64,000 nucleotides of DNA from the IMG/VR virus record IMGVR_UViG_3300033149_003931, positions 28,568-92,567 of that record; one strand, 5' to 3'. Below, piece after piece: positions 15,269-64,000 of this stretch (position 1 is its first letter; each line of letters begins with the position of its first letter). The DNA comes from a virus. The position numbers and the translations under genes are program-made. A model generated the notes under the pieces. It was not told where the DNA came from. It worked only from the letters and a program-made list of their open reading frames with translations, and did not search any database.

Positions 15269-15297
15269 AGTATACCATATTAATTTTGATTTGTCAA
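15269..15297 (-). promoter_or_regulatory. sigma70-type promoter P1
   Basis: TTGACA-17 nt-TATACT with extended -10 TG. Confidence 0.85.
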
Positions 15298-16396: not shown

Positions 16397-18604
16397 TTAA
16401 CCCTCCAAATAAGTTAAAAATTGGCCTTGTTTTAAAGCCTCTGTTTCTCGCTCGTTACACTCAATTAATCTATTATTATTAAAATTAAATTTATAAAACA
16501 GTGATCCATGTTCTAAATCACCAGTTTGATTTTTTGAAACAAATAATTCAAGGATTGGATGATACTTGCCCGCATCATCTTTCCAATGATAGTTTGTATC
16601 ATGTTTATTTTTTGCGGTATGGAAGTTTGAATAAATTCCTGCCACAAATCTTGCAGCATACCAAAAATCACAAGTATCCTTAATATCCTTTCCTGACGGT
16701 TTATCATTAGCGGATTTGGGTACTTCAGCCGTTGCAATCACCGGACAATTCATTTTTTGTGGAAGAGTCTTTAAATAAGAGGCTATTCGTTGAGCATTCT
16801 GCGTTGACTCTAACTCTCTTTTACCGGAGGCTCGTAAATCATGAATATTATCAATCACAAGTATAAAACGCTTTCCCCTATCCTCCGATATAGTTGAGTG
16901 AATCTTTACAAAATTATCTAAACTGTCAGTTGTTTGAATATCTGAACCGTCTTTAATAATTAGATTTTCTTTTAAAATCTGTAATTTTTTCATTCCATTA
17001 AACCATTGTTCTTCATATTTTTTATCGGGTTGACGAATATTTCGGGAACTTAAATTAGCGGCAATACTCATTAAACGGGGAATAATTGATCTTTTTGCTC
17101 CATCATCTAATGAATAAAAAGCGACAAAGTTGTCTTTACTCTGAACAAGGTTGTAGACGAAATTAAGAAGAAACGCTGATTTACCCTGTTCTGGATGTCC
17201 GATAAATAAATATAGGGTATCCTCAAAACCACCAAATTTTTTATCAAAGATTGGAAAACCCGAAGTTCTTCCGGCAAAATTTTTATTCCAAGCCAACTCA
17301 GTAAAATCTTCTAAGAGTTCATCATAAGAATCCTTCTCCTGAACATATTGAATCATGTTGAAAGAGTCTTTATTATCACTTATATCATCAATGGATCGTG
17401 TTAGTTGTCTTTTACCAATATTTAAAACTTTCGCACACTCATTGATATAACCCTCTTTACGAATAAGATTCGGACAGCCGGCGATAAAATCATAAATTTT
17501 GTTAGCTTTGATTAGGCCCTTATCATAATTTTGTAAGAGGTAAGTAATTGCCGGAATCTTCGGAAGATTATTAAACTCCTCCAAAGTGTGCTTCTTCATA
17601 TATTCATCTGGATCTGGTTTTGGTTCTCCCTCAATAATTGGTACTTTAATAATTGAGATTTCCGTATCCAAATTCTTCATTCGTAATATAGTTCTTAAAA
17701 AGCCGTCCCGGGCCGTTCCTTTATAGAGGTTATCCGGATCAAGAGATAATCTGATTTTCTTTAGATTCATCTCAGCAATCTTTTCTAAATTCGAGTCATT
17801 TACAACATTGGTAAGACAGGCCACGACATTCTGCTGTGGGTGTAAGGCAACGGCGTCGAATACACCTTCCACAATAGTTAGCTCCTCTTTCCCGCGAACT
17901 CTTTCAATATTAAATAAATTGCTTCCTTTAATACAGATCTTGATATAAGGGTCATTATCCGTTGTATCAAACATTCGGATAATAATTCCAGTATATTGTT
18001 TATTCTCATCCCAGATAGGAATAACTAAACCCGATTTATGAAATACCTGAAGTAATCTATAATCAAAGAGCATTTTAGATTCTTTGTTCATTTCCGAGGT
18101 AATATCTTCTGGGGATAAGTACCCGATTTTCCAAGCTTGGATTTTCTCTTTTGTCAATCCGCGGCGTTTATAAAAAGGAACACCTTTACTCGGGTTTGGT
18201 TTTGTGCAAGAAAGCTTATGCAGCTTTTCAAGAAAATTTCTTTGTCTTTGATAAGCCTTCTCCTTTGCTGAGTATTCATATTCCTCATCAATAGGAATCC
18301 TATATTTTTTTGCCAAATCTTTAACAACGGAAAAAAAGCTTGAACCCTTAATGGCCTTCCCCGTCTTTAAAGAGTAGACATCAAAAATATCATAAGACCT
18401 ACACTCAACAAAACAATAAATCAATTTATTTTGAGAATCAGGCAAAAAGGCTGCGGAAAGCTTTCCCTCATCACCGTGATCGTGAGCCTCTGTATGCGGA
18501 CATTGTACCTTAGTTCCGTTGGTTTTACAACCAAGTTCACTAAGGTATTCTGGTAATTTTGCCCGAATAAGTTCTTTTATCTTATTCAGATTTTTAATTC
18601 TCAC
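16397..18604 (-). CDS. DNA primase-helicase (Zn finger + TOPRIM + DnaB-like)
   Basis: CPH..CFVEC; IVEGVFD..LDPD..DPDE; GHPEQGKS, VIDNIH, SKNQTG. Confidence 0.9.
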   Translation of the reverse strand: MRIKNLNKIKELIRAKLPEYLSELGCKTNGTKVQCPHTEAHDHGDEGKLSAAFLPDSQNKLIYCFVECRSYDIFDVYSLKTGKAIKGSSFFSVVKDLAKKYRIPIDEEYEYSAKEKAYQRQRNFLEKLHKLSCTKPNPSKGVPFYKRRGLTKEKIQAWKIGYLSPEDITSEMNKESKMLFDYRLLQVFHKSGLVIPIWDENKQYTGIIIRMFDTTDNDPYIKICIKGSNLFNIERVRGKEELTIVEGVFDAVALHPQQNVVACLTNVVNDSNLEKIAEMNLKKIRLSLDPDNLYKGTARDGFLRTILRMKNLDTEISIIKVPIIEGEPKPDPDEYMKKHTLEEFNNLPKIPAITYLLQNYDKGLIKANKIYDFIAGCPNLIRKEGYINECAKVLNIGKRQLTRSIDDISDNKDSFNMIQYVQEKDSYDELLEDFTELAWNKNFAGRTSGFPIFDKKFGGFEDTLYLFIGHPEQGKSAFLLNFVYNLVQSKDNFVAFYSLDDGAKRSIIPRLMSIAANLSSRNIRQPDKKYEEQWFNGMKKLQILKENLIIKDGSDIQTTDSLDNFVKIHSTISEDRGKRFILVIDNIHDLRASGKRELESTQNAQRIASYLKTLPQKMNCPVIATAEVPKSANDKPSGKDIKDTCDFWYAARFVAGIYSNFHTAKNKHDTNYHWKDDAGKYHPILELFVSKNQTGDLEHGSLFYKFNFNNNRLIECNERETEALKQGQFLTYLEG

Positions 18605-18993
18605 CTATACCTCCGAGTATTTTTAGTCTTTTCTATAAATCTACAATTTGAGTATTCATAATTTCCATCAGAGTCTTCTCGATCTATGCTTGCCCAAGTT
18701 AAAAACCGGGCTTTATCCCTAAACCAGAGTTTCTTAATTTCTTCTTTAGTCAAAAGAAATTTGATCCCTCTACCACCATAATTTTTATACTGTTTATGCT
18801 TAGGATTAGTACACCTGTATTTAGCATGTCGCCAAGAATTCAACCAAGGTTGTTTAGCACGATATAATCGGTTCTTTTCTAAAAGAATTTCTTTATTTCT
18901 TCTATAGTATTCCCGAAAATAGTTTCCAAAGTATTCTGGATAGTCTTCTCTATATTTCTTTTGATAAATTTTATACTTTGCTTTATCTCGCAC
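18601..18993 (-). CDS. HNH-type homing-endonuclease-like protein (WFRD family)
   Basis: RCTNP..YGGRGIK..LWFRDKA..SIDREDS..YEYSNCRFIE. Confidence 0.75.
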   Translation of the reverse strand: MRDKAKYKIYQKKYREDYPEYFGNYFREYYRRNKEILLEKNRLYRAKQPWLNSWRHAKYRCTNPKHKQYKNYGGRGIKFLLTKEEIKKLWFRDKARFLTWASIDREDSDGNYEYSNCRFIEKTKNTRRYR

Positions 18994-26466: not shown

Positions 26467-26622
26467 CTATGCCTCCCAGCAAATTACTCCCCTATTAAAC
26501 AAACCTAAACCAATAACTAAAATTATTATAAAAATTAATGTCGGAAGAATTACCAGAGTCAAACAAAACGCCCCGCAAGGTATTAAGATAAACCCAGCAA
26601 TTTTACTTTTTAATTTTAGCAT
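26467..26622 (-). CDS. Leaderless 51-aa membrane peptide
   Basis: ATG 7 nt after TATACT; long hydrophobic stretch. Confidence 0.55.
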   Translation of the reverse strand: MLKLKSKIAGFILIPCGAFCLTLVILPTLIFIIILVIGLGLFNRGVICWEA

Positions 26623-26629
26623 TATTATA

Positions 26630-26658
26630 AGTATACCATATTTTTAAACGTTTGTCAA
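26630..26658 (-). promoter_or_regulatory. sigma70-type promoter P2
   Basis: TTGACA-17-TATACT with TG extension. Confidence 0.85.
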
Positions 26659-27105
26659 GCCAGAGTTCTTATCATACCATTTTAAATAATTATCAATTCC
26701 CCGTTTACCAAACTTTTCATAAAGATAATCATAAGCTCTACGGTGTAAAGAGTTATGTTTTGATACAGTAAGAGACATGACCTCAGGAGAATTTTGTTTC
26801 AAATAAATATGATGCCTTACTTTTTTGACTTTCATTTTATATCCGGGGTGTCCCATCAAAGATTAACTAATCCTTAAGCGTTGTTTAGTTGACTGGCTTT
26901 TACCTGTTCTGCCCATATTCTTCCCTGTAGCCCAAGCCGATTGAAGAGCCTGTTTATGCTCTTTAGATTTTGGTTTTCCTCTTGATGCCTTAGAGATTTT
27001 TAAAGCAATTTGTTTTTTATAATCCAAATTTTGCCAACGCTCTTTACTTGTTTGAGCAATTTTTCTTTTAGTTTTTTCAGTATGCCGATAACCAAGAGTT
27101 CCCAT
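26644..27105 (-). pseudogene. NUMOD3-HNH homing endonuclease with an in-frame TAA
   Basis: HTEKTKRKIA and KSKEHK NUMOD3 repeats; RLRIS*SLMGH in one frame (stop at 26863-26865); RHHI..HNSLH. Confidence 0.75.
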
Positions 27106-29220: not shown

Positions 29221-29249
29221 AGTATAACATATTTTTAACGTTAAGTCAA
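29221..29249 (-). promoter_or_regulatory. sigma70-type promoter P3
   Basis: TTGACT-17-TATACT with TG extension. Confidence 0.75.
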
Positions 29250-29936
29250 ATCTAAATCGCCAATATCCAAAAGTATCTGGAATAATTGCCTTAACAACAT
29301 AAATATTTTTCTGAAAATAATTTCCTCATCAACAGTGTTTATATAAATTTCCCAAACCTTTTTCTTATCCCGAGGTAACAAAATAATTCCCGATTTTACT
29401 TCTTTGACATCAAGACCCTTTTGTTTACAATACATGTCTCGATAGATACAAGTCTGAATTTTATGTGAGAGTCTAATTGCTTTCGATGTTTTAATATCAA
29501 ATAGAATTTTTATATGAGAACATGACCCAATTAAATCCGCTGTCCCAGCACTCTTATAATCCTCATTGTCCCAGACAGTATGTTCTATTAAATCACACTT
29601 AAATCCGGATTGAAGCTCAAATTTTTTATATCGCTCTAAGGCATTATGCTCGGATTTCTTACCTGTCCTTATATAGTCTTGAACGATATTATGAATATTG
29701 GTTCCTTCTTGAGATAACGAATCTAATAATTTTTTATGAAAAACAAAACCCAAAGAAGTAGATGTCTTTGAAAGATCTCCACGGGATTTTAAAAATTTAA
29801 TCGTATTTGATACGGCCCATAAAATTAATTTAGGTTTAGGTAATAAACCCAGAATAGTTGTCACAGATGGTAGGGTTATTTGATCCCCTATATCATAAAA
29901 TCTATAAGCCCCCCGCTTATATTTTTTAATCTGCAT
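29241..29936 (-). CDS. PD-(D/E)XK exonuclease
   Basis: PSVTTIL..GTNIH..AGTAD..DIKTS..Q..Y; likely start MQIKK. Confidence 0.85.
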   Translation of the reverse strand: MQIKKYKRGAYRFYDIGDQITLPSVTTILGLLPKPKLILWAVSNTIKFLKSRGDLSKTSTSLGFVFHKKLLDSLSQEGTNIHNIVQDYIRTGKKSEHNALERYKKFELQSGFKCDLIEHTVWDNEDYKSAGTADLIGSCSHIKILFDIKTSKAIRLSHKIQTCIYRDMYCKQKGLDVKEVKSGIILLPRDKKKVWEIYINTVDEEIIFRKIFMLLRQLFQILLDIGDLDLT

Positions 29937-30402
29937 CTTTATACCTCCATATAAAACCATAAGCCGTTTTTAATTTATTTCTGCAACATTGACTAATGTG
30001 CCCGTTTCCGCGAAAGTTTAGCGCTCTTTCAATCTGATTACAGCTTTTCCACTCTTTAATAAAATTTCCAGATAAATCGTATTGAAAAACAATTTTGCTG
30101 CATACTCTTATATTTCTTTCGGTAATATTTTTTGTGAGTTCAATAAATCGACAATTATCAAAAGTATAATCTTTAGTTGAATCCTCTCGATCAATCGAAG
30201 GCTGTCTTAAATTAAAAGCCTTATCTCTGAACCAAAGTTTCTTTAATTCTTTTTCGGTAATTTTACATTGGATGCCTTTACCACCGTAATATTTATAATC
30301 TTTATTTGTTTTACAATTACATCTGGAATTAATTCGATATAAATGGAATACCCAAGGCTTGTTTTGTCTCTTTTTAATATAATGTTTTTTATGCCTATTC
30401 AT
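29926..30402 (-). CDS. WFRD-family HNH + NUMOD1
   Basis: YGGKGI..LWFRDKA..SIDRED..NCRFIE; TAYGFIWRY. Confidence 0.8.
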   Translation of the reverse strand: MNRHKKHYIKKRQNKPWVFHLYRINSRCNCKTNKDYKYYGGKGIQCKITEKELKKLWFRDKAFNLRQPSIDREDSTKDYTFDNCRFIELTKNITERNIRVCSKIVFQYDLSGNFIKEWKSCNQIERALNFRGNGHISQCCRNKLKTAYGFIWRYKDAD

Positions 30403-38715: not shown

Positions 38716-39168
38716 TTAAACCCCCCTTACATATTGCCAAATAAAACCACCACAAGTTTTTTGCTGTCCATTTAATACATTATAAATATTTTGTAGACCT
38801 AAAGTTCTTTGGGCAGAAATAATACTAGGCCAACGTTTAATAAAACCTCCCATTTTACTAAATTGATCTGTCGCTTTAATACAGGCCCTGATTGAATTAT
38901 CTCTTAATTCAAGAAATCGACAATTTGAAAACTCGTAATGCCCACCGGATTCTTCTCGATCAATTGAGGGGTGAAGCATTAAATAGGCTTTATCTCTGAA
39001 CCAAAGCTTCTTTACTTGTTCTTTCGTTAATAGGAACTTGATTCCTTTTCCAGCATAGTATTTACTCCTAGGATGATTTTTAGCTCGGCATCTTTGTTTT
39101 GCTGATCTATAAGAATTTATCCAAGGATATTTAAGCTGGTATCTTTTACAGGCCGCTTTATTATACAT
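38716..39168 (-). CDS. WFRD-family HNH + NUMOD1
   Basis: Same family motifs; TCGGFIWQY. Confidence 0.8.
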   Translation of the reverse strand: MYNKAACKRYQLKYPWINSYRSAKQRCRAKNHPRSKYYAGKGIKFLLTKEQVKKLWFRDKAYLMLHPSIDREESGGHYEFSNCRFLELRDNSIRACIKATDQFSKMGGFIKRWPSIISAQRTLGLQNIYNVLNGQQKTCGGFIWQYVRGV

Positions 39169-42044: not shown

Positions 42045-43145
42045 TTATGCCTCTGCAAACCTCTTAATTAATTTTTGTTTTATCTCAGAGAGTAGACCCT
42101 TTTCCTTGAGCGTGATTAAAAGTTCTTTTTGTCCTTTAACTTTAATATCACCATAAGAATACATGGCCCCACCTCTTTTAATTATCCCATATTGGGTAGC
42201 ATATGTCAAGAGAACCTTTGCATTATTAAATTTTGGTGGAGAAAAATAAAACTCCGTAACACCGGAAACTAACGGTACGGAATATTTCGATCTATCAATA
42301 TGAAATTTCATTTCTCGGCCAACAACCTTCTCATTCTTTGTCAACTTTGCTCCGGGTCTCACCTTAATAATATAAGAGGAATGATGCTTTAATGCCTCTC
42401 CGCCGGGAATAGTCTCCGGCGAACCATACACAACACCAACCTTATTCCTAAGATGGGCAATTAAAACAACCAGTGTATCATTATAACTATCCGGATCTTG
42501 TAAATCCGCCGGTTGAAGCCCTGAGGTAAGCTTTTGGACTAATTTACCATTACGCCGAGCCTGTAAAGCATATTGATCTTTTTCAGTCTTTTTATCTAAA
42601 GCCTCTTTAGGTACGCCTGCGGTTACACTATCGAAAATAACTATTCCAAATTGTTTACTCCTAACAGCCACATCTGCAAGATCAATAGCCTCTTCCAAAT
42701 TATTTGGGCGGGCGATATGAAAGTGTTTTAAGTCGTTCCCTAATTTTTTAATCCAAGGTTTATCAATGTCACCTTCACATGCAATATATAAACTAGGAAT
42801 ACCTTGCATAGTAAATACTCCCGCCAGCATTAAAGCTGTAAGAGTTTTCCCCGAGTTAAACGGGCCATATAATAAACTAATAGAGCCTCTGGGCAGCCCG
42901 CCCTCAGTTAAAATATCCAGAAGTAAATTTCGAGTCGAAACTTTTTGCACATTAAGAAGATCCTCAGCAGAAGCAATTGTGCCCTGACCAAACTGCTTTT
43001 CGATTACGGCGAGAGTCTTGTTAAAATCCTTAATCTCTTCTGCTGTAGGAGCTTTTAATTTAGGAACGTCATCAATCATTTGTTCCTGTTGTGTTTCGGT
43101 TACAACAGGTTGTTCCTTAATAGGTTCTTTCTTTTTCTGTGACAT
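42045..43145 (-). CDS. recA: RecA recombinase
   Basis: GGLPRG, GPFNSGKT, IFDSV, YGSPETIPGGEALK. Confidence 0.95.
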   Translation of the reverse strand: MSQKKKEPIKEQPVVTETQQEQMIDDVPKLKAPTAEEIKDFNKTLAVIEKQFGQGTIASAEDLLNVQKVSTRNLLLDILTEGGLPRGSISLLYGPFNSGKTLTALMLAGVFTMQGIPSLYIACEGDIDKPWIKKLGNDLKHFHIARPNNLEEAIDLADVAVRSKQFGIVIFDSVTAGVPKEALDKKTEKDQYALQARRNGKLVQKLTSGLQPADLQDPDSYNDTLVVLIAHLRNKVGVVYGSPETIPGGEALKHHSSYIIKVRPGAKLTKNEKVVGREMKFHIDRSKYSVPLVSGVTEFYFSPPKFNNAKVLLTYATQYGIIKRGGAMYSYGDIKVKGQKELLITLKEKGLLSEIKQKLIKRFAEA

Positions 43146-43802: not shown

Positions 43803-43845
43803 CGCTTAATCCTCCTTGTTTATATTCTCACTTAGCATTATTATA

Positions 43846-43874
43846 AGTATACCATATTTTTAAACGTTTGTCAA
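43846..43874 (-). promoter_or_regulatory. sigma70-type promoter P4 (in a 44-bp block identical to P2)
   Basis: TTGACA-17-TATACT; 43832-43875 equals 26616-26659. Confidence 0.85.
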
Positions 43875-44332
43875 GTTTTTTCTGTATCGCCAAATAAAAC
43901 CATAAGCAGTTTTAAGCCCCCCTAAACAACATGAAGAAATATTTGAATGTTTAAAATTTAAAGCCCTTTCAATATCTCTCGTGCTTTTCCAATCTTTAAT
44001 AAAAATAAAATCTTTTGAATATTGATTAACAATTTTATTCTTGACTCTTTGATTCATTTCAGCCACATTTTGTCCGTGTTCAATAAAACGACAATTACTA
44101 AAAATATAATGACCATTTGAATCTTCTCGATCAATACTCGGCTTTGCCGTTTTATTAGCTCCGTCACGAAACCATAATTGTTGAAGCCCCTCAAGTGTAA
44201 TTAAGCATTTTATTCCTTTACCGCCATAATATTTAAACTTTTCCTGTTGGGATTATTACAGCGAGATAGAATATTTTTATAAATATATTTTAATTTATTC
44301 TTTCTATAATCTTTTTGTCCCCAACTTAACAT
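43860..44332 (-). pseudogene. WFRD-family HNH-NUMOD1 with a 1-nt frameshift
   Basis: MLSWGQ..RCNNP / QEKFKYYGGKG..LWFRDG..TAYGFIWRY..LTNV; shift near 44248. Confidence 0.75.
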
Positions 44333-46851
44333 ATGTCCTGCCACGACTTTCCCGTTTTTGACTCAAGAGTTAATGGAACTTTTAATTTAGTATATGGAGA
44401 TTGTGCATATTTTAAGACTATTTCTTTAACTTTTTCTAAATCACAATCTTTAACTTCGAGAATTCCCGCATCATGAATCTGGTGAACATAACGAACATCT
44501 AAATTGTTTTCTCTAACCTTTTCCCAAACCTTAAACATGCCGATAAAAACCATCTCTACAGCCCAACTTTGAACAATAAAAGATTTCGCCTGCCTAACGA
44601 TCTCTTCTCGTTGTCTTCCCTTAGCTAACTCTATATCGGGAAAAAGCCTGAGAGTACCGAAAGGGGTCATCAATTTTTTATGTTTAAAGACGCGTTGTTC
44701 AATTTGATTTAGCCAAACCCAACCTTCTCGGCATAACTGAAAAAATAATTTCTGAATCTGCTCCGCCTCTTCAATTGATCCACCGTGTTCTGCAACGATA
44801 CCTTCCGGGGATCTTCCGTACATTGAACCATAAACAATCGTCTTAACTTTATTCCTTTTTTCAGCATACTCAGCATCTTTTTTGTTTAGAAATTTTTCCT
44901 CAGGCTCTCGATAAAACTGAGCCGCAATAAAGGCATGAATATCTCGACCAGCATTAACAAACTCAATCCCTTTAGAATCCTTTGACAAATCTAACCAGAC
45001 CCGAAATTCGATTTGTGAATAATCATAGTATAAATAGCTGTATCCCTTTTCTGGAATAAAAATTTCCTTAATACGGCTGAGTCGTGGTACATTTTGAATA
45101 TTGGGTTTTGAGCTCATCACACGGGATGAGTCCGGAGAGAATGGATTAAAGCTACTATGAATTCTTCCGTCAATTCCAATAGCCTTTATATAGCCGCGTA
45201 ATTTTTCAATATGGCCTTTAACGGTTCGATAATTTACCAGCACATTAAGAGAAGGCCGTTTACTTGCGAGTTTTCTTATAGCCTCTGCATTACATGAAGG
45301 ATTATCTGAGTTAGTTTTAACATGAACCGGTAATTGTAGATCCTCATAAAGTAATTTTGTTAATTGCTTCGATGAGTTTAAGCTAAATTCCTCGGGTAAA
45401 TTAAACTTCTTTTTAAATTTGGTCTCACACTTATCTTTCTCTGCCTGATAAAAATCAATAATTTCGTATGCCTTTTTTTCATCAATCTTTATCCCGTGAA
45501 ATTCTAAATCTGAGGCGATAATTTTAATCATGTTGGTTAATATTTTATTTGAAATTAGACTTCCCTGTTCCTTGAGTTTTCTGAAAAGATTCACAAAAAG
45601 CGTGGCTGTATAATAGGTATCCTCAGCACAATAATACCTTCGGTCTTCCATACTTAGGGCCAGAATATGCGCCCGGTCAATCTGTTCCTTATATGAAATT
45701 CCAAAATACAATTGAACCAGAAAACCTAAAGCATTGGCCCCTAACGGGTTCAGAAGAAATTGCATCATCCGAGTATCCGAAACTAAGTTATTAAATAAAT
45801 CATGTCCGGCAGCATAGAGGAATTGTAAATCAAACCCACCATTATGAAATACGACTTTTCGTTTCTTTATGACCCGGGCACAGGCCGGCAAGACTTCAGT
45901 ATAGAAAGGATTTTTTTCTGGTTTCTCTATTAAACGTTTGCCAGCACCATTACACCGAGAACATTCGATCGTATCCGGTAGTTTATTAAACCGCTCTTTC
46001 TGTAAGTCAGTTTTTGCTTTGGCTAAATTTTCAATCTTTTCTTGGTTCGGTATCTGTCCCTTATTACAATCTTTATGGCCACACTTAACTATAGCTCCAA
46101 AGTTTTCTGCATCAAAAGAGACGGTCTGTTTTGTTTTAACATCAGTCAAAGCTATAGTAACAATCTTATCGGATAAAGGATCAAGACCAGTCGTTTCAAC
46201 GTCACTAGAGATATACTCTCCCAAAGCATTTAGATCCTTGAGATCATGAGAATACTCGACTTTTTTCTGAAGCCTTACCTCATCCTGTTTTAATATTACC
46301 CCAACCTTAGCAAAAGCCTTTTCCGTTTGGCGAATCTGAACGCACTTATTGGAGAAATTTGTTAAATAAAACATATCATAGACCGGGACTAAATTACAAT
46401 CATACTCGGCATTATAGAAACTCTTACCCATAACCTGTTTTAGCGGGACTTTCGGATTTACATCAGGAATAAACCATTGTGTAACCATGCGGCCAATTAA
46501 TATAATGACTTTCGGTTTGACTTCTTCGATTTCTTTTTTAAGGTAAAGCTCATAACATTTTTGTTTCATGACCTTAGTTGGTTTCTTTTTCTTATCAGAA
46601 ATAAAGCATTTCACAAAAGTCGTTACATAGATCGAGTTTAAACTTAGACCTATTTTTTCTAAATATCGATCAAGATAATTGTTATATTCACTATCTGAGG
46701 CAATAGATTCAGACTGAATATCGTTCATAAAAGGAGAATCAAAAACCAACATTACTTCAGAATCTTTCCGGCCACGGCCTTCAGTAAAGTTAGCTTCAAT
46801 AAAACCTCTACAAGATTGCTTGTGGAATGAGCACTCTTTACACTTTAACAT
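44326..46851 (-). CDS. polA: Family A DNA polymerase with N-terminal UDG-like domain and 3'-5' exonuclease
   Basis: CKEC..TTFVKC..IILIG (UDG fold); DVETTG, HNGGFD, YCAED; DYSQIEFR, KTIVYG, QIHD. Confidence 0.95.
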   Translation of the reverse strand: MLKCKECSFHKQSCRGFIEANFTEGRGRKDSEVMLVFDSPFMNDIQSESIASDSEYNNYLDRYLEKIGLSLNSIYVTTFVKCFISDKKKKPTKVMKQKCYELYLKKEIEEVKPKVIILIGRMVTQWFIPDVNPKVPLKQVMGKSFYNAEYDCNLVPVYDMFYLTNFSNKCVQIRQTEKAFAKVGVILKQDEVRLQKKVEYSHDLKDLNALGEYISSDVETTGLDPLSDKIVTIALTDVKTKQTVSFDAENFGAIVKCGHKDCNKGQIPNQEKIENLAKAKTDLQKERFNKLPDTIECSRCNGAGKRLIEKPEKNPFYTEVLPACARVIKKRKVVFHNGGFDLQFLYAAGHDLFNNLVSDTRMMQFLLNPLGANALGFLVQLYFGISYKEQIDRAHILALSMEDRRYYCAEDTYYTATLFVNLFRKLKEQGSLISNKILTNMIKIIASDLEFHGIKIDEKKAYEIIDFYQAEKDKCETKFKKKFNLPEEFSLNSSKQLTKLLYEDLQLPVHVKTNSDNPSCNAEAIRKLASKRPSLNVLVNYRTVKGHIEKLRGYIKAIGIDGRIHSSFNPFSPDSSRVMSSKPNIQNVPRLSRIKEIFIPEKGYSYLYYDYSQIEFRVWLDLSKDSKGIEFVNAGRDIHAFIAAQFYREPEEKFLNKKDAEYAEKRNKVKTIVYGSMYGRSPEGIVAEHGGSIEEAEQIQKLFFQLCREGWVWLNQIEQRVFKHKKLMTPFGTLRLFPDIELAKGRQREEIVRQAKSFIVQSWAVEMVFIGMFKVWEKVRENNLDVRYVHQIHDAGILEVKDCDLEKVKEIVLKYAQSPYTKLKVPLTLESKTGKSWQDIC

Positions 46852-47450: not shown

Positions 47451-47858
47451 TTATTTAGAGTCTACCTTTTTCTTTGCATTAAGCCAGCGATCTATAAACC
47501 TGCAATTATCATAGGAGTAATCTAAAGAAGATTTCCGCCTATCTAAAGAGGGGTTAGTCAAGGCCCCAGCATTATCCCGGAACCATAATTTCTTAACCTC
47601 TACCAAAGTCAGGTTAAATTTGACACCTTTGGCGCCATACCACTTATACCCGGGACACTTTGGATTCTCACAACGCTGTTTAGCATTGACATAGAAACGT
47701 AACCACGGATGTTTCTCCCGATAACCATTCGTCTTCTGATCCCGGCCATCGTGGTGCTTCTGGTAATAAGCCTGTTTTTGCTCTCGAAGCTTCTCCCGGT
47801 TGGCTTCACGCCATTTTTTTAAATACTCTTTTCTTTTTACGGGGTCTTTAATGGGCAT
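47451..47858 (-). CDS. WFRD-family HNH protein
   Basis: AKQRCENP..YGAKGV..LWFRD..SLDR..YDNCRFI. Confidence 0.75.
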   Translation of the reverse strand: MPIKDPVKRKEYLKKWREANREKLREQKQAYYQKHHDGRDQKTNGYREKHPWLRFYVNAKQRCENPKCPGYKWYGAKGVKFNLTLVEVKKLWFRDNAGALTNPSLDRRKSSLDYSYDNCRFIDRWLNAKKKVDSK

Positions 47859-48723: not shown

Positions 48724-48752
48724 AGTATATCATATTTTTTAGTGTTTGTCAA
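48724..48752 (-). promoter_or_regulatory. sigma70-type promoter P5
   Basis: TTGACA-17-TATACT with TG extension. Confidence 0.85.
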
Positions 48753-50051: not shown

Positions 50052-50758
50052 TAGAAATAGTCTTTCCGTATTTTTAATAAAAAGTCATTCACTTTTTCAG
50101 GATCGGCTTTATGGTCACATAATGATAAGATTGATTTAGTCTTTGCCATTAAACATTCTGCCAAATTGATTATATGCCCCATATCGAAAGACTCTGTCCC
50201 ATATTTAATTCTTTCAAGTTCTTTTTTAAAGGCGGGATCTACAACTTTTAAACTAAATTTTCCATAATGTAATAAATCCCAAAGATTATATAAAGTTCTT
50301 AAATAAGCAACAGCATACTTACGGGGCCGGTCATCTTTTTTATCTAACATTTTCTTTCTCTGATTTAGGCCATATCCAGTGAAGGCATTAAAAGCATCTT
50401 GAGGATTCCAAACATATGGAAATAATCCCCGGAGTTCATCACTTAATTTTCGAAGACTTAAATCTTCTAAAGGATTATCAGGTGGAGTATGTATAGGAAT
50501 CTTTGGTGCCATAAAAACTTCGAGAATAGTTGGATTACATCTTAAAGCTAAATGAAGAAAATGACCTATTTCATAAGTAGTTTGATCTTCTTTGCCTTCT
50601 AACCAATGAGATCCTTTATATTTATAACCAAGAGAAAGTACGTCCTTTGTAGACTCAACATACACCCCGCGATAATCATGATCAGAGTCTTTAGTATGTA
50701 GTCCATGGGCCCTGCTGCCAACCAGACATTTAAGTATTAATGATTTATCTTCTTTCAT
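50051..50758 (-). CDS. RlaP-like Pol-beta nucleotidyltransferase
   Basis: VGSRAHGL..SDHDYRGV..NPTILE. Confidence 0.8.
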   Translation of the reverse strand: MKEDKSLILKCLVGSRAHGLHTKDSDHDYRGVYVESTKDVLSLGYKYKGSHWLEGKEDQTTYEIGHFLHLALRCNPTILEVFMAPKIPIHTPPDNPLEDLSLRKLSDELRGLFPYVWNPQDAFNAFTGYGLNQRKKMLDKKDDRPRKYAVAYLRTLYNLWDLLHYGKFSLKVVDPAFKKELERIKYGTESFDMGHIINLAECLMAKTKSILSLCDHKADPEKVNDFLLKIRKDYF

Positions 50759-51104
50759 ATTCTAATAGCTCCATTTCAAAATGTTCAACATCTAAACGTT
50801 CTGTTAATACTGGCTGAATTTTCCCTCTGTAAATTATTTCATAACAAGCGGGTTCCCTTCTTACACACTCTCTCCACTCATCCATACAAACAATATCAAA
50901 TTCTTTACCAAATAAATTTCTATAAAGACTACAGGGAATGAATTTCACTCGGCTAAATGCCGGTTTACGTCCATAAGAATATTCTAAATCACGAGCATGA
51001 CTACGTGAAGGACAAAGAACAATCGCATTTAACCACATAACTGTTTCTAACAGGCGCTCTGTTTTGCCCGAACTGGCTGGGCCTAATAAAAGTTTTGGTT
51101 TCAT
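50745..51104 (-). CDS. Miniature P-loop protein (terminase/SF2-like ATPase core)
   Basis: GPASSGKT; IVLCPS..A; GKEFDIVCMDE within 119 aa. Confidence 0.55.
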   Translation of the reverse strand: MKPKLLLGPASSGKTERLLETVMWLNAIVLCPSRSHARDLEYSYGRKPAFSRVKFIPCSLYRNLFGKEFDIVCMDEWRECVRREPACYEIIYRGKIQPVLTERLDVEHFEMELLEYERR

Positions 51105-52898: not shown

Positions 52899-53237
52899 TT
52901 ATACTGTCCTGTTTGTTTTGATTAACTGTATCACTACTCTTTCCTCACCGTTAGCATAATCTATTGAAATAAAATCCTTCAATAATGGTTGTGTACTAAA
53001 CTTAGCCAATATCTTTTCCCGGCCAAGAAGTTTATGTGTAGCCCAACGATGCCAACCGTCTCTAATTACATAGCGACCAGTTCGAAGTTTTGCTACCTTA
53101 ATTGGTGGAAAACTACCCTTAGCTAAACCATAAGTATATGTGCCCGCTATAATATTAGCAAACTCTAAAGTTTTTTCATCTAATGGAATTCTATCCATAT
53201 CAATAAGATTAAGTGAAATTTCTTTTTCAACTCTCAA
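52899..53237 (-). CDS. ParB/Srx-like protein
   Basis: PPIKV..YVIRDGWHR. Confidence 0.65.
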   Translation of the reverse strand: MRVEKEISLNLIDMDRIPLDEKTLEFANIIAGTYTYGLAKGSFPPIKVAKLRTGRYVIRDGWHRWATHKLLGREKILAKFSTQPLLKDFISIDYANGEERVVIQLIKTNRTV

Positions 53238-53880: not shown

Positions 53881-55006
53881 GCTTATTTTTTCTACTTTGG
53901 TTCTTAATTTGTTGGAATTCATAGGAAATATTTTTAAAGGGCTTCTCATATTCGGGCCGGATCATCTTCCAAATAATATCTTTATATGGTTTTCCTCTCC
54001 ACATAGCAAACAATACAGAATGATAACGATGTTTCTGAATTTTTTTCGCGGTTTCACTAAGTATACCATATTCTTTAGCCTCTGTCAAGGTGGGTAAATG
54101 ATAAAGTAGAGTTTTGCAGAGCCCCATAATAAGATCATATTCTTTTTTTAATTTATCTGTCTGATCCTTCAACCAAGCATAGAATTCATTCGGTACTCTA
54201 TCAATAATTTGATCTATTGGTTGATTATTTCGAAGTAATGTCCAAATCGTTTTTGTACTTACTCCGGTAAGAATTTTGTGGAGTCTGACATATTCTGCAA
54301 ATTTAACCTTAACCCTAAAATTTTCCTTTGTTTTTAAAACAAAACCCTCTTTGTTATCCGCTTCGGGTAATTTTAGTTTAGAAAAAAATCCATAATGCAC
54401 GACAAGGGGAATATTATAGGAATCAGCAAACTTTTTCATTCTAGCATACGACCACTCATTACCCGTTTCTTTATGAATTACCGCTAATAAAATTAAATCT
54501 CTACGATCCCCATAATTTACGACTATTCGATTCTTCGGGTAAATGATTTCCCATAAAAAAGTATATTCAGATGACCAAAGAGCTAAGACAGACTGTTTAA
54601 AACTATCAAACTTTTCTGTGAGTATTTTTTCCGCTTCTTTAGCTTGTTCACTTTCAAAACTTCCTCGGGTAGCAATACACAATTTTCCATTAACATCTTC
54701 ATACATAATACCTAAAGACCCATCAATTTTATCAAAAACCGCCCAAGACTCATTCTGTCTTACAGGTAATGGGCCAAGAAAAGAATTCTCCGCGTATTCT
54801 CCATAATTAAAGAATTTCTTAAAAGGACGGGCAACAATATGCCCTTTACCATCTAAAATTAATCCCCGGCAATTACGGGTGGCCTCGTTCCAAAATCTCG
54901 CATATTGAGTCTTTGCAGTATAATTGTAAATAAAATAATCCTGCAAAGGGTGCTTTCTTTTAGTAATATAACCCTGTTCAATAAGTTTTTGATCAATTTT
55001 TATCAT
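53867..55006 (-). CDS. rnlA: RNA ligase 1 (T4 RnlA-like)
   Basis: CRGLI, KFFN, KIDGSLG, ATRGSF, EGFV, RVKVKF..Y. Confidence 0.9.
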   Translation of the reverse strand: MIKIDQKLIEQGYITKRKHPLQDYFIYNYTAKTQYARFWNEATRNCRGLILDGKGHIVARPFKKFFNYGEYAENSFLGPLPVRQNESWAVFDKIDGSLGIMYEDVNGKLCIATRGSFESEQAKEAEKILTEKFDSFKQSVLALWSSEYTFLWEIIYPKNRIVVNYGDRRDLILLAVIHKETGNEWSYARMKKFADSYNIPLVVHYGFFSKLKLPEADNKEGFVLKTKENFRVKVKFAEYVRLHKILTGVSTKTIWTLLRNNQPIDQIIDRVPNEFYAWLKDQTDKLKKEYDLIMGLCKTLLYHLPTLTEAKEYGILSETAKKIQKHRYHSVLFAMWRGKPYKDIIWKMIRPEYEKPFKNISYEFQQIKNQSRKNKLLSS

Positions 55007-56661: not shown

Positions 56662-56777
56662 CGAGTAGACCCTCTCTTTTGAATATTCTCTCGTAATTCT
56701 ATAAACTGACAATTATCAAAAGTATAATCTCCCTCATTATCTTTTCTATCACTCATAGAGTCCACATAGCGTTTCAT
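56658..56777 (-). pseudogene. 39-aa in-frame remnant of a WFRD-family HNH gene
   Basis: MKRYVDSMSDRKDNEGDYTFDNCQFIELRENIQKRGSTR. Confidence 0.7.
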
Positions 56778-59636: not shown

Positions 59637-60188
59637 TCATCTGTCATCTCCCGACCCTTGAAGTTTACCACGGGCCTGTCTGTCTTTTAATTTAGTAATG
59701 TTTGCTTCCCCGATCTCCTCTAGGGTTAAGTCCAAGTCTTCCGCTATACTGTCTAAAACCTGATAGACCTCACCAAGCAATTTCTTCATATCCGATTTAA
59801 AACCTAAACGGGAAAAATCGCAATTATAACAAATCTGTTTCTCCAACCGACCCAGAACATTCCCCGCCCTATTACTGAGTCTGATAACATGACAGATAAA
59901 ATTGGTCTCTCTTTTATAAATAACAACTTCCGCGATTTCTTTTAAGGTTAAGCCTAAATCTTCCGAGGCATTAGCTAAATACCAGTAGACATCACCAAGC
60001 TCTTTCTTCATTGCCTGTTTAAATTCCAAATTGTAAAAATATGAATTATGATCCCGAATCTGTTTTTTAAGTTTTCCTAGAACCTCCCCAGCCTCATTAC
60101 CGATTCCAATAATATGGCATGTAAGACTGAGACCCGGAGGATAAATATCTAGTTTCCTTGCCTCTTTTTGGTATTCATTAGCTTGCAT
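59637..60188 (-). CDS. MazG-like NTP pyrophosphohydrolase with internal duplication
   Basis: EAGEV..KELGDV; second copy RAGNV..LLGEV; GSGDDR. Confidence 0.8.
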   Translation of the reverse strand: MQANEYQKEARKLDIYPPGLSLTCHIIGIGNEAGEVLGKLKKQIRDHNSYFYNLEFKQAMKKELGDVYWYLANASEDLGLTLKEIAEVVIYKRETNFICHVIRLSNRAGNVLGRLEKQICYNCDFSRLGFKSDMKKLLGEVYQVLDSIAEDLDLTLEEIGEANITKLKDRQARGKLQGSGDDR

Positions 60189-60377
60189 TTTTGTATATCC
60201 TTATCTCATGTCCCGGTTTAATTACTTCAACGTTAAGGTCAGCCTCTAAATTTTTTGCTGTATGATAGAGATTTCTGAAAACTTGGACACTTACCTTTCC
60301 CAAGCAGATATTAATTTCGCCCTCTTTTCTGGCAACGCTCAATATATCTGCAATTAAGATTCTGTCCTGTCCGTTCA

Positions 60378-60536
60378 TTAAATATCTACTCCGTTAATAA
60401 TTAATTCTTTGACTTGTCCAACATCAGAATCTTTTACTTCGAGAATTATACTATCATGAATTTGATGAACGCAACGAACATCTAAATTTTTCTCTTTAAT
60501 CTTTTTCAGATATTTAATTAAATCTTCCATTGTCAT
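60378..60536 (-). CDS. Unannotated 52-aa mini-paralog of PolA motif C
   Basis: NLDVRCVHQIHDSIILEVKD vs polymerase NLDVRYVHQIHDAGILEVKD; SD GGAG; TAATG-coupled to the next gene. Confidence 0.8.
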   Translation of the reverse strand: MTMEDLIKYLKKIKEKNLDVRCVHQIHDSIILEVKDSDVGQVKELIINGVDI

Positions 60537-60641
60537 ATTGTGCTCCACTTATTAGACGGAAAACGGGGCGAGTATATAGGCAGGTCAACCCGCCCGCACT
60601 TTCTGGTTTTACTTCTATGTTACATCATCCATTGTGCATAA

Positions 60642-60670
60642 AGTATACCACATAATTTCAAAAATGTCAA
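60642..60670 (-). promoter_or_regulatory. sigma70-type promoter P6
   Basis: TTGACA-17-TATACT with TG extension. Confidence 0.85.
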
Positions 60671-61303: not shown

Positions 61304-61651
61304 TTAAAACCCTCCAACTGGAACCAAGATTTTATCAGCCTTTTCATAATTACAGGGCGCACAGGCTGGTTGTAAGTTTCTCATTTCTCTTGTCCCGCCT
61401 AAAGACTTTGGAATAATATGATCCACAGTCATTAAGATTTTGTTACGTTTCTTATCCACATAGAATAAATCATAATGAATATGGCCGCGCCTATCCTCCC
61501 ATTTAATTATTGTATTGCCGATTATGCCGCAATAAACACACTGAAAGCCCTTCCGCCAAAACACTCGAAACCGTCTATGTCTTTCAAAACCTCTCCTCTT
61601 CCTGAAGAAATTAGGAATACTGTCAAAGATTTTTAAAATTTTCATTTTCAT
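61304..61651 (-). CDS. HNH endonuclease (McrA-like)
   Basis: CVYC..TVDHIIPKSLGG..NLQPACAPCN. Confidence 0.85.
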   Translation of the reverse strand: MKMKILKIFDSIPNFFRKRRGFERHRRFRVFWRKGFQCVYCGIIGNTIIKWEDRRGHIHYDLFYVDKKRNKILMTVDHIIPKSLGGTREMRNLQPACAPCNYEKADKILVPVGGF

Positions 61652-61653
61652 AA

Positions 61654-63303
61654 TTAAGCCTTTGTTAAAAGTTTGATGCTGGATTTTCCGATTTTTAAAT
61701 TCTTGCCGTAGGAATTCATAATCTCGTCAACGGGTATATCAGTCTCCTCTGCCATTTGATGCGGGGATTTTACCCAGCGATTAATGCGGGCAGCCTCTAC
61801 ATTGAATTTTTTCATAAACTCTTGATTGAATTTAATATGTACAGTACCTTTTTTATACGCCCTGACACTCATAAAAGTCTCTCTTTTATCACTGGTACGA
61901 TAACAAAAATCTTTTTCTTTTCCTGGACTCCATTCAAAATTTCTTGTCTTGTCCAAAACATTGAAGCCTAAATTTTTAGCAACCGTACAAATATCGTCTA
62001 AAAAATCGTGGATACTATTTGCTATACCGTTCGGATAAACATGATCTCCATAATTACTCTTATTAAAGCAGTTATATTTTTCACAGACAATCCGATAGTC
62101 TAAGGTGTAGTGGGTGTGATCACTTCGAGAATATCGCCAACCGTCCTCAACCATTTTCTTATTAGACTTATAATTTTTTACGTTCTTGGGTTCTGTTATT
62201 CCTTGATAGACAGAGCATAATTGCTGATCTATATATTTATTTGCATTTTTAATTACCCAGATTACCATAGCATAGGCATTTGCCGCTGTAAAATCTATGG
62301 TTGTATGCTCTCTTAATGTTTCTAGCATTGATTGACGACTTTTAGAGGTTAATCTTTCAGTAATTTTATCCAAATTATCAAAAAGCTCTTCCCAATAAAA
62401 ATTTTTCAAACCCTCAATTTTTAATTTCAAACCAGACTTAACACCCTCAATATTAACATCGAACTCTTTCAGAATACACGCGTCTAACTGTTCGATTTGT
62501 TTGTATGTGGCGTATAATTTTTTCATATCTTCTAAGTATAACTCTTCCAACCGTTCAATTAAATTGTATCCTTTGATTAATTTCTTAAGCCTTTCTTTGT
62601 TCTTTTGTTCTTCTTTATAATCATAACCCTTCGACACATCAGCCTTAATTTTAAAAGTTTCATCAAACCAGATGTCAAAGGGATCTGATAATAGAGTGTT
62701 ACTGTAGTCACTTCCAGTCAATGTTACCTTTACTATATCCACATTACACCGGGCCTGTCTTTCCGCATTAAGAAAATCAAAACTGCCTAACGTTTTGTAA
62801 AAAGTTTTCCGGTCACTCTTTTTAAAACTCTCAGCCCGTAATTTTAAAGCCTCTTGGATTTCCTGATTTTCTTCCCACCTACTCGGAATAACTAAATAAA
62901 TAAATTTTGAATTAGCTTCTTTGATTATTTTCTTTGTCCATTGAACATATTCACTATAGGGCGGATTACAAAAAATCACATCAACTTTTTTATCAATTAG
63001 TGTTTGTTGATAAAAGTCTGTTCCTATAATAAAAATATCTTCAGGCATTGAATTAATTAATATCGGACTTTTTTCGAAGGCATATTTTGTAATAGTTGCT
63101 TTAGGTATGCCTTCCGAATCACATTGAATCATATCATCTAAAATATTGAATACGTTACCATTACCCGCCCCAATATCCAATAAAGAAAAATGACTTGACT
63201 CCTCTTTCATATCTTTAAAGATTACTGACAAAATCTCTTTCGTTGTTGGATAAAATTCAAAGTCCTCGTTATTTTCTTTTAAGGTTTTTATTAACGTGTT
63301 CAT
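61654..63303 (-). CDS. DUF4942-associated N6-adenine methyltransferase
   Basis: FEFYPT, LDIGAGNG, CNPPY; C-terminal YKKGTVHIKF; likely start MNTLIK. Confidence 0.8.
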   Translation of the reverse strand: MNTLIKTLKENNEDFEFYPTTKEILSVIFKDMKEESSHFSLLDIGAGNGNVFNILDDMIQCDSEGIPKATITKYAFEKSPILINSMPEDIFIIGTDFYQQTLIDKKVDVIFCNPPYSEYVQWTKKIIKEANSKFIYLVIPSRWEENQEIQEALKLRAESFKKSDRKTFYKTLGSFDFLNAERQARCNVDIVKVTLTGSDYSNTLLSDPFDIWFDETFKIKADVSKGYDYKEEQKNKERLKKLIKGYNLIERLEELYLEDMKKLYATYKQIEQLDACILKEFDVNIEGVKSGLKLKIEGLKNFYWEELFDNLDKITERLTSKSRQSMLETLREHTTIDFTAANAYAMVIWVIKNANKYIDQQLCSVYQGITEPKNVKNYKSNKKMVEDGWRYSRSDHTHYTLDYRIVCEKYNCFNKSNYGDHVYPNGIANSIHDFLDDICTVAKNLGFNVLDKTRNFEWSPGKEKDFCYRTSDKRETFMSVRAYKKGTVHIKFNQEFMKKFNVEAARINRWVKSPHQMAEETDIPVDEIMNSYGKNLKIGKSSIKLLTKA

Positions 63304-63625
63304 GGTCAATTTTCCTTTGTGAGGGGTTTTCAAAATTTTCTAAGGTCTGATAATAATTATTTTCTTCTTCAGTTTCCCTTAGATATTTTAATTGATTAAG
63401 ACTTAAAGTCATAATTAATCCTTTTTTAATTATTTTTTAATGCCGCGGCAATTTCCTTTTCCTTACCAGCGGCAATTAGAGATATATGGCACTCCTGCTC
63501 TGTGCCGTCCCACCAGCTACTACAAAATAACTGCCTGCTGTGTTTTGATCTCCTTTTGTTAATTATTTCCACTCCCCTTTTCTATATTTTGCTTGTTTAG
63601 CGATTTTCCAAAAGGTAGTTTGTAT

Positions 63626-64000
63626 GATTTCGTTGTATTTTTTCCGTTCAGCCCGGTCGATTTTGTTGTATTTTTCCCGCGCAGCCCGGTCGATTTTGTT
63701 GTATTTTTCCCACTCAGCCTGTTCGATTTCGTTGTATTTTTCCTGCGCAGCCCGGTCGATTTCGTTGTATTTTTCCCACTCAGCCTGTTTGATTGTTTGA
63801 TTTCGTTGTATTTTTCCCGCGCAGCCCGGTCGATTTTGTTGTATTTTTCCCACTCAGGCTGTTTGATTTTGTTGTATTTTTTCCGTGCAGCCCGGTCGAT
63901 TTTGTTGTATTTTTCCCACTCAGCCTGTTCGATTTCGTTGTATTTTTCCTGCGCAGCCCGGTCGATTTCGTTGTATTTTTCCCACTCAGCCTGTTTGATT
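63626..64000 (-). repeat. 33-bp coding tandem repeat (11-aa units, e.g. WEKYNEIEQAE), at least 11 units, running off the window
   Basis: AATC..GCTG..AAAAATACAAC units alternating A/B; 8-bp duplication at 63787-63802. Confidence 0.9.

Follow-up and report, generated by a model that had tools for sequence, protein, structure and literature searches.

A short open reading frame (ORF) in the terminal early region of an uncultured phage encodes 52 amino acids with homology to motif C of the phage's own DNA polymerase (PolA), and alignment shows this mini-ORF to be a diverged copy of the motif C piece of a family A polA. The phage has direct terminal repeats and is represented by the 92,567-bp IMG/VR record IMGVR_UViG_3300033149_003931. 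The window, i.e., the whole stretch of 64,000 nucleotides that was analysed, comprises positions 28568-92567 of that record, and coordinates are given in the window unless stated otherwise. The explanation that we favour, tentatively and at somewhat less than an even chance, is that the mini-ORF is the fossil of an earlier polA allele, captured during recombination driven by an endonuclease, and that it is now translated into a helix-hairpin-helix peptide with no catalytic function.

A motif C patch in the early region

The two copies and the elements surrounding the mini-ORF are located as follows.

44326..46851, minus strand: the phage's own PolA, 841 aa, with a UDG-like domain, a 3'-5' exonuclease and a family A polymerase
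44419..44522, minus strand: polA segment homologous to the mini-ORF core (approximately residues 777-811; motif C hairpin and flanking helices)
60378..60536, minus strand: mini-ORF, 52 aa, with PolA motif C homology and the C-terminus ...NGVDI (ATG at 60536-60534, TAA stop at 60380-60378)
60402..60505, minus strand: polA-derived core patch in the mini-ORF, 104 nt, 79.8% (83/104 nt) identical to 44419-44522, E 7e-19
60543..60546, minus strand: Shine-Dalgarno GGAG, with a 6-nt spacer to the mini-ORF ATG (read from sequence)
60566..60595, minus strand: hairpin with a GC-rich 8-bp stem and CGUUUUCC after it, within the leader (~100 nt) of the mini-ORF (MFE structure)
60642..60670, minus strand: promoter TTGACA-17-TATACT with a TG upstream, 11/12 match, preceding the mini-ORF
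60178..60378, minus strand: 66-aa ORF downstream of the mini-ORF, its ATG overlapping the mini-ORF stop as TAATG; no family match
61304..61651, minus strand: gene for a small, unrelated HNH endonuclease, located 0.77 kb upstream of the mini-ORF
15269-15297, 26630-26658, 29221-29249, 42181-42209, 43846-43874, 48724-48752, 54060-54088 and 60642-60670, minus strand: eight consensus promoters of the form TTGACA-N14-TGGTATACT

BLASTP aligned the mini-ORF product with PolA residues 767-813 (25/47 identities, 52.4 bits, E 4e-14), and the 23 of 34 matching residues counted by hand in an earlier note on this DNA were reproduced over mini-ORF residues 12-45. The homologous core of ~37 codons corresponds to polA residues 777-813. 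Outside the 104-nt patch, similarity to the polA flanks was not found (p 0.55 and 0.36 against shuffles); an extension of the homology into the mini-ORF termini was unsupported in nucleotides and marginal in protein (p 0.04 with the aligned Met counted). The core is therefore a discrete polA-like patch amid unrelated sequence that supplies the start and the stop. A self-search of the 92.6-kb genome recovered the polA/mini-ORF pair as the only such duplicate besides endonuclease genes and terminal repeats.

Pfam placed the mini-ORF on positions 313-354 of the 381 positions of DNA_pol_A (E 7e-6). Its 25.6 bits lie below the PF00476 gathering cut-off of 34.3, and the match spans ~42/381 profile positions, with motifs A and B, the fingers and the thumb absent. 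Because these elements are absent, the 52-aa product cannot polymerise. The motif C homology itself is significant and the catalytic Asp is kept, in line with a fragment of a family A polymerase. All ten core positions that are invariant in 16 polAs are retained, the catalytic Asp included.

The predicted secondary structure of the mini-ORF is helix (3-15), strand (20-26), strand (29-34) and helix (36-47). AlphaFold, supplied with an alignment of polAs from the clade, returned a compact helix-hairpin-helix with a pLDDT of 84.6, a confidence that was driven by the polA alignment. The model superposed on the Pol I palm of 6vdd_A with an rmsd of 1.1 Å over 42 residues (TM 0.72, query-normalised), in keeping with homology to the helix, beta-hairpin with catalytic Asp, and helix that make up motif C of PF00476. 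A Foldseek search with the model gave a best E of 0.14, which is not significant at so short a query, and a modelled complex of the mini-ORF product with polA residues 460-841 scored 0.00, a value that speaks neither for nor against an interaction.

Motif C of the whole clade reads HQIHD[AG][GMLA], as opposed to the canonical QVHDE (polA 44470-44480 region; clade alignment A3). The second family A carboxylate is replaced by Ala or Gly throughout the clade.

Three trivial or known routes to such a pair were rejected. Antisense regulation of polA was ruled out, both copies lying on the same strand, and so was an assembly artefact, the copies being 80% rather than 100% identical. For a template/variable-repeat pair of a diversity-generating retroelement (DGR), only 10/26 mismatches have an A in the mini-ORF (A content 0.41), and all other substitution classes are present. 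No reverse transcriptase was matched among the mini-ORF neighbours scanned.

The mini-ORF is the first ORF past the consensus promoter at 60642..60670. On the minus strand the extended form of this consensus occurs eight times, as against 0.11 expected by chance; two of the eight are held within a 44-nt perfect repeat (26616-26659 and 43832-43875). The leader hairpin may act as a leaky terminator or attenuator according to the folding model, whereas the structure of the leader as a whole was not significant (z-score -0.78). Sequence and Pfam thus bore out what the earlier note had said of an own Shine-Dalgarno, new termini, TAATG coupling, the first position after the promoter and the non-polymerase nature of the product. 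One point needs correcting: the note had the ORF absent from its track, but gene callers do see it, and the databases already list it as a predicted protein for which a PF00476 match has been precomputed.

The terminal early region that holds the mini-ORF also encodes a DNA methyltransferase and a tandem MazG. The latter is a tandem double MazG-like pyrophosphatase (59637-60188, minus strand) two genes downstream of the mini-ORF, whose halves (59705-59894 and 59927-60119) share 70% DNA identity. Coming from the right end, the first large gene (61654-63333, minus strand) is that of the methyltransferase, which has 559 aa and a DUF4942 domain; L032 and L033, two further viral contigs, contain homologues with 46-58% identity and no adjacent mini-gene. 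Both genome ends share imperfect ~66-nt tandem units (63620-64000; genome positions 1-250), and ORFs have been called across them, e.g., 63563-63853.

This setting bears on a different explanation, proposed in part by the earlier note, in which the mini-ORF encodes a selected early mini-protein. Such a protein would imitate the palm element and occupy or blunt whatever recognises that element, as a decoy, a mimic or a dominant regulator; the target would be a host polymerase-sensing immune receptor, a partner of the host or phage polymerase, or a factor of a competitor. We regard this as possible but rather unlikely. The expression signals, the first position after a consensus promoter and the early-region neighbourhood of a methyltransferase and a tandem MazG would suit such a protein, as would the ten retained invariant positions with the catalytic Asp and the compact model. 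The confidence of that model stems from the polA alignment, however, and in the intact enzyme the copied element lies buried within the palm. The premise of polymerase-triggered defences is sound. Avs19, a bacterial STAND receptor, senses family A polymerases via the core polymerase domain and does not require the catalytic Asp (bioRxiv 10.64898/2026.01.04.697583). This published sensor needs the whole core polymerase domain, however, and at 52 aa the mini-ORF product falls far short of the size of domain that has been found to suffice.

A precedent for decoys made of essential-gene fragments has been proposed in Bodo saltans virus, which carries ectopic ORFs with fragments of the catalytic domain of its own DNA polymerase, and in which inteins and introns with endonuclease genes have invaded essential genes (PMC5871332). 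That virus is a giant eukaryotic virus in which many fragments are fused to ankyrin repeats (PMC5871332), whereas the mini-ORF is a single stand-alone ORF of 52 aa, in the 92-kb genome of a tailed phage, that carries no other domain. No further fragment pair was found in the phage genome by self-search at E <= 1e-4. Two other ORFs considered as mini-mimics of catalytic motifs (52899-53237 and 50745-51104, minus strand) had no Pfam match and no self-match to larger genes at E <= 1e-4. If the mini-ORF did act as a mimic, the phage would offer a small and testable example of a polymerase imitated by a fragment of itself, with a bearing on the evasion of receptors that sense conserved replication proteins.

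Divergence and endonuclease genes at the polA 3' end

The segment from which the core derives lies at the 3' end of polA, next to a gene for a homing-type endonuclease. The relevant features are listed below.

44329..44532, minus strand: divergent polA 3' patch, residues 774-841, 67.6% identical to P0007 as against 92.1% for residues 1-773 (Fisher p 5.7e-8)
43860..44332, minus strand: HNH-NUMOD gene immediately following polA, whose stop overlaps the ATG of this gene (ATGTTAA)
47451..47858, minus strand: paralogous gene of the same endonuclease family, 0.6 kb upstream of polA
18601-18993, 29926-30402, 38716-39168, 43860-44332 and 47451-47858, minus strand: HNH and NUMOD (I-HmuI-like) copies, with a remnant at 56673-56750

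Two polAs recovered by a region-restricted search, P0004 and P0007 (the latter 841 aa long and encoded on a contig of 91.9 kb), were compared as proteins only, and both have 90% overall identity to the polA of the phage. For P0004 the identity is 91.1% over residues 1-773 and 79.4% over residues 774-841. The mini-ORF core (residues 777-813) falls inside the divergent patch. In this core the mini-ORF is identical to P0007 at 28/37 residues, to P0004 at 25/37 and to the polA of its own genome at 23/37. Where the resident polA and P0007 differ, the mini-ORF sides with P0007 at seven sites, with the resident polA at two (Val786 and Arg787) and with neither at three, a preference that rests on few sites (sign test p 0.18). 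The mini-ORF has the allele class S803/Q807/L811, as opposed to C/K/I in the resident polA. The Val-Arg pair (786-787) of the mini-ORF occurs only in the resident polA among 16 polAs, and its lineage-specific codons lie in a 16-nt identical block common to the two copies. Among polAs with DNA, the resident gene is the closest to the mini-ORF (72/90 vs 52-65/90 nucleotides; pS 0.42 vs 0.60-0.90).

These affinities could also be taken to mean that the fragment never belonged to the phage's own lineage, but was imported from a co-infecting phage with a P0007-like polA or is all that is left of a second polA of foreign origin. The protein identities to P0007 and P0004, higher than to the resident polA, would agree with this, and so would a fragment in a more distant relative (G008, see below), which is likewise nearest another clade allele (P0015, 18/37) rather than its own polA (14/37). 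We nevertheless hold a foreign source to be decidedly unlikely. Among 16 polAs, only the resident one has the Val-Arg pair of the mini-ORF; of the polAs with DNA, the resident gene is the most similar to the mini-ORF both at synonymous sites and over all nucleotides; and the rest of the resident polA is 92% P0007-like, so that "P0007-like" may equally describe an ancestral allele of the phage's own lineage.

Self-comparison of the genome revealed an HNH-NUMOD endonuclease family of 5-6 copies scattered through the replication module. NUMOD/I-HmuI-like DNA-binding domains are present in the copies, which gave matches to HNH endonuclease families of PHROG. Two of them, at 43860-44332 and 47451-47858, bracket polA. 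In the former, a run of A about 34 codons in contains a 1-nt frameshift. The gene could be a pseudogene, or the shift could come from a sequencing error in the homopolymer or from programmed slippage. Another copy adjoins a DnaB-like helicase gene (16397-18604). RecA is encoded by the phage itself.

The features expected of an endonuclease relic were found at the source: an endonuclease gene adjoins polA, and a bounded divergent tract, at the protein level, includes the copied segment. At the ectopic copy, neither an endonuclease gene of the polA-flanking family nor a remnant adjoins the mini-ORF; the nearest remnant (56673-56750) is 3.7 kb away.

The seg and mob genes of phage T4 are examples of homing-endonuclease co-conversion. 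Known co-conversion tracts replace sequence in place, whereas an ectopic copy of the replaced segment, 16 kb off and in the form of an ORF, goes beyond what has been described for them. In published work, the homing-endonuclease genes of phages gather next to essential genes, and recombination tracts have their limits at such genes (Barth et al. 2023, PMC10448857). The polA region resembles these "HEG islands" both in the free-standing HNH-family genes that bracket an essential gene and in the sharply bounded divergent tract adjoining an endonuclease gene, here the polA 3' patch; in our phage the endonuclease activity is a predicted one.

We propose that break repair driven by a homing endonuclease would have remodelled the 3' end of polA and that, as a by-product, a patch of ~105 nt from an earlier allele of the same lineage would have been copied into the early region. 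This patch encodes the beta-hairpin of motif C together with the helix on either side of it, and the local sequence gives it a start (Shine-Dalgarno and ATG) and a stop. The resulting mini-ORF is probably transcribed from the consensus early promoter and translated into the 52-aa peptide. The polA 3' end would have been overwritten, or would be evolving fast, in connection with the adjoining endonuclease gene, so that the mini-ORF may keep the earlier, P0007-like version. We infer the causal link to the endonuclease, the translation of the mini-ORF and its lack of a selected function.

Origin as a recombination fossil is favoured because the homology is confined to 104 nt between flanks that do not resemble polA, because HNH-NUMOD genes bracket polA in a phage that has RecA, and because published phage endonuclease genes mark recombination boundaries (PMC10448857). 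The divergence of polA is moreover concentrated in residues 774-841, beside the endonuclease gene and covering the core, and the mini-ORF is nearer P0007 and P0004 than the resident polA, as expected of a copy made from the allele before its replacement. Some observations fit this origin less well. The preference for P0007 rests on few sites and on protein sequences only, and the Val-Arg pair common to the mini-ORF and the resident polA is unpredicted by a simple displaced-allele model. The polA-flanking endonuclease family is not found beside the mini-ORF. The Shine-Dalgarno, the ATG, the TAATG overlap and the first position after a promoter represent more order than a random scar needs. Should the fossil origin hold, the mini-ORF would be a datable snapshot of homing endonucleases remodelling an essential phage gene, in which a fragment of a core enzyme became an expressed orphan gene at once, i.e., gene birth from a catalytic motif.

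The same recombination could have a use at the level of DNA, and we consider this very unlikely. The patch would then be a silent alternative allele of an endonuclease-attacked polA segment and an ectopic donor for short-patch gene conversion, from which a cut polA would be repaired to a different, possibly resistant sequence and the invader's endonuclease gene would not be imported. The location inside the recombination-hot 3' tract of polA agrees with such a donor, as does an allele class that differs from that of the resident gene. The 16-nt block with the Val-Arg codons could stem from an earlier short conversion, whichever copy was the donor, although an identical run of 16 nt is, by estimate, about what chance gives at 80% identity over 104 nt. 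Copying the mini-ORF sequence into polA could, however, harm the enzyme through the Ser-Ile beside the catalytic Asp and the Y22C change. There is one donor rather than an array of cassettes.

P0004 polA carries an in-frame insertion of ~246 aa after residue 611, inside motif A, and the polA of G007 (L061) one of ~308 aa after residue 584, at a PNIQN motif. The two insertions sit at intein-like positions in different conserved motifs. P0004 had no match to Pfam inteins at E <= 1e-3.

Selection on the mini-ORF and its distribution

The earlier note had taken several synonymous differences between the two copies as a sign of protein-level selection. All five codon pairs that it listed are present, and NG86 estimates against the resident polA gave a pS of 0.42, a pN of 0.15 and an omega of 0.27 for the core, and an omega of 0.39 for codons 1-47. 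The synonymous excess is marginal (p 0.04-0.05), and the pairwise omega includes the strongly constrained polA branch (omega ~0.1). Differences between the mini-ORF and the resident polA avoid invariant sites (1/11 vs 13/26; p 0.027, range 0.02-0.03). Compared with the three closest alleles, seven changes are specific to the mini-ORF (K11, K14, C22, S29, I30, G40 and I47), and for these an avoidance of invariant sites was not found (p 0.31). One of them, Y22C, alters a Tyr that is invariant in 15 polAs, and two adjoin the catalytic Asp (Ser-Ile for Ala-Gly). Allelic variation of polA thus seems to explain the avoidance seen against the resident gene, and protein-level selection on the mini-ORF is unsupported, because the signal vanishes when only mini-specific changes are counted. 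In neutral simulations, a frame of 37 codons stayed open in 28-56%.

The lack of an independent sign of selection, together with a frame that is often expected to be open by chance, is a further reason for viewing the mini-ORF as a recombination fossil. For a selected mimic, no selection signal specific to the mini-ORF branch was found, and divergence between functional polA alleles that preceded the copying would account just as well for the retained invariant positions.

Conservation was surveyed in several collections. A near-length search of 5.8e9 protein clusters returned the mini-ORF itself only, on three contigs. An exhaustive phmmer search of 1.84e9 representative proteins returned the mini-ORF itself and P0002, which was rejected as a homologue, being the translation of a low-complexity repeat. 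Motif-alignment scans of viral and metagenome collections recovered full-length polAs only; a scan of the genome-contig collection for further mini-ORF copies gave no matches, and neither did a scan of the viral collection with an alignment of the mini-ORF and the G008 fragment. In a search for longer proteins with the mini-ORF as the query nothing scored, and the phage's own polA was likewise unrecovered, so that this search carries no information.

No related genome was found among GenBank phages. Querying GenBank with the mini-ORF gave 345 records with one place each, which lay in a polymerase gene among the matches listed; the best match (H1) was rejected as a mini-gene, being a full-length Pol I of 925 aa. 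The polA query gave 3386 places in 3384 records, and no second polA copies in GenBank phages were obvious at the thresholds used.

DNA was read for six relatives (G001, G003, G004, G006, G007 and G008). G001 (polA 75% identical) is collinear with the phage, and its contig stops 300 nt upstream of polA, the early region being missing. In the partial records G003 and G004 (polA 64%), a second polA copy was not found in ~16 kb upstream of polA, and their early regions have only a few genes in common with the phage. G006 (95% complete) and G007 (100% complete) have polA only, and the fragment was not found in them.

No conserved family of mini-proteins emerged from these searches; the sole analogue is a 193-aa ORF of G008, which is not demonstrably orthologous. 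The earlier suggestion that such mini-paralogs might recur finds a counterpart in this ORF, and none among small homologues in the 1.84e9 or 5.8e9 proteins. By its distribution, the mini-ORF is an ORFan, and it would be a young orphan gene specific to its lineage. That it is an ORFan, absent from G003 and G004 (partial) and from G006 and G007, argues again for a fossil, on which reading the mini-ORF would be a molecular fossil and a chimeric young orphan rather than a conserved component of a decoy system. A mimic is correspondingly weakened by an ORFan without a conserved family. Two outcomes that the earlier note had itself set against a decoy were, at least partly, obtained: the gene is unique, and it lies nearer the P0007 segment than the resident polA.

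A second motif C fragment in a relative

G008 (IMGVR_UViG_3300035698_008252, 71.9 kb) has a polA that is ~49% identical to that of the phage and without a close relative (45-49% identity to all). A further ORF with motif C homology was located in its early region.

L067:1237-1818, equal to G008 4901-5482, plus strand: 193-aa early ORF in the same orientation as polA, from which it lies ~9 kb upstream

Residues 89-129 of this ORF align to polA 774-814 in hhalign (probability 90%, E 1.6e-6), and Pfam matched it to positions 307-360 (E 1.2e-5). The motif C segment (KQVHDD...IIEV) is flanked by ~88 N-terminal and 64 C-terminal residues that belong to no known family, and the ORF is a singleton in IMG/VR. 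The same polA segment is present in the G008 ORF and in the mini-ORF, with a common 3' limit just before the conserved YAQSPY motif. Both ORFs have local matches to PHROG 5995 and 2573, short phage polymerase proteins with motif C. These profiles represent polymerase halves of 236-336 positions, whereas only 40-50 positions are matched here, in genomes that also have an intact polA.

The G008 fragment is identical to the mini-ORF at 12/37 residues, to its own polA at 14/37 and to P0015 at 18/37. By these values, it is the product of an event that is independent of, or much older than, that of the mini-ORF. It keeps 8/10 invariant positions and agrees with its own polA at 6/27 variable ones.

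This second case counts to some extent against a fossil, being another motif C ORF from the same polA segment in an early region. The retention of invariant positions in an independent ORF would suit a mimic, to which its being a singleton in IMG/VR is again adverse. As a donor for homologous repair, a copy that is 14/37 identical to its own polA is too diverged.

Directly after polA, G008 has an intact 206-aa endonuclease gene of the polA-flanking family. In G003, G004, G006 and G007 both the fragment and the post-polA endonuclease gene are absent. The fragment was therefore found in 2/2 genomes with the gene and 0/4 without it (Fisher p 0.067), in a sample that is small and not fully independent. 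This association, which is also what a DNA-level donor would lead one to expect, fits equally well a by-product of cleavage near codon ~814 and selection in genomes whose polA is attacked.

A broader generalisation, which we judge unlikely, is that tailed phages with an attacked polA repeatedly recruit the motif C unit of ~40 residues into early small proteins as palm mimics. Such mimics might serve as decoys or blockers of Avs19-like immunity or of a competitor's polymerase-directed weapon. Two independent fragments, both with an endonuclease gene right after polA, provide a comparative hypothesis for a database-wide survey. The G008 ORF has remained open and long despite an identity of 30-38% to polA, which suggests from its sequence that such polA fragments can be kept.
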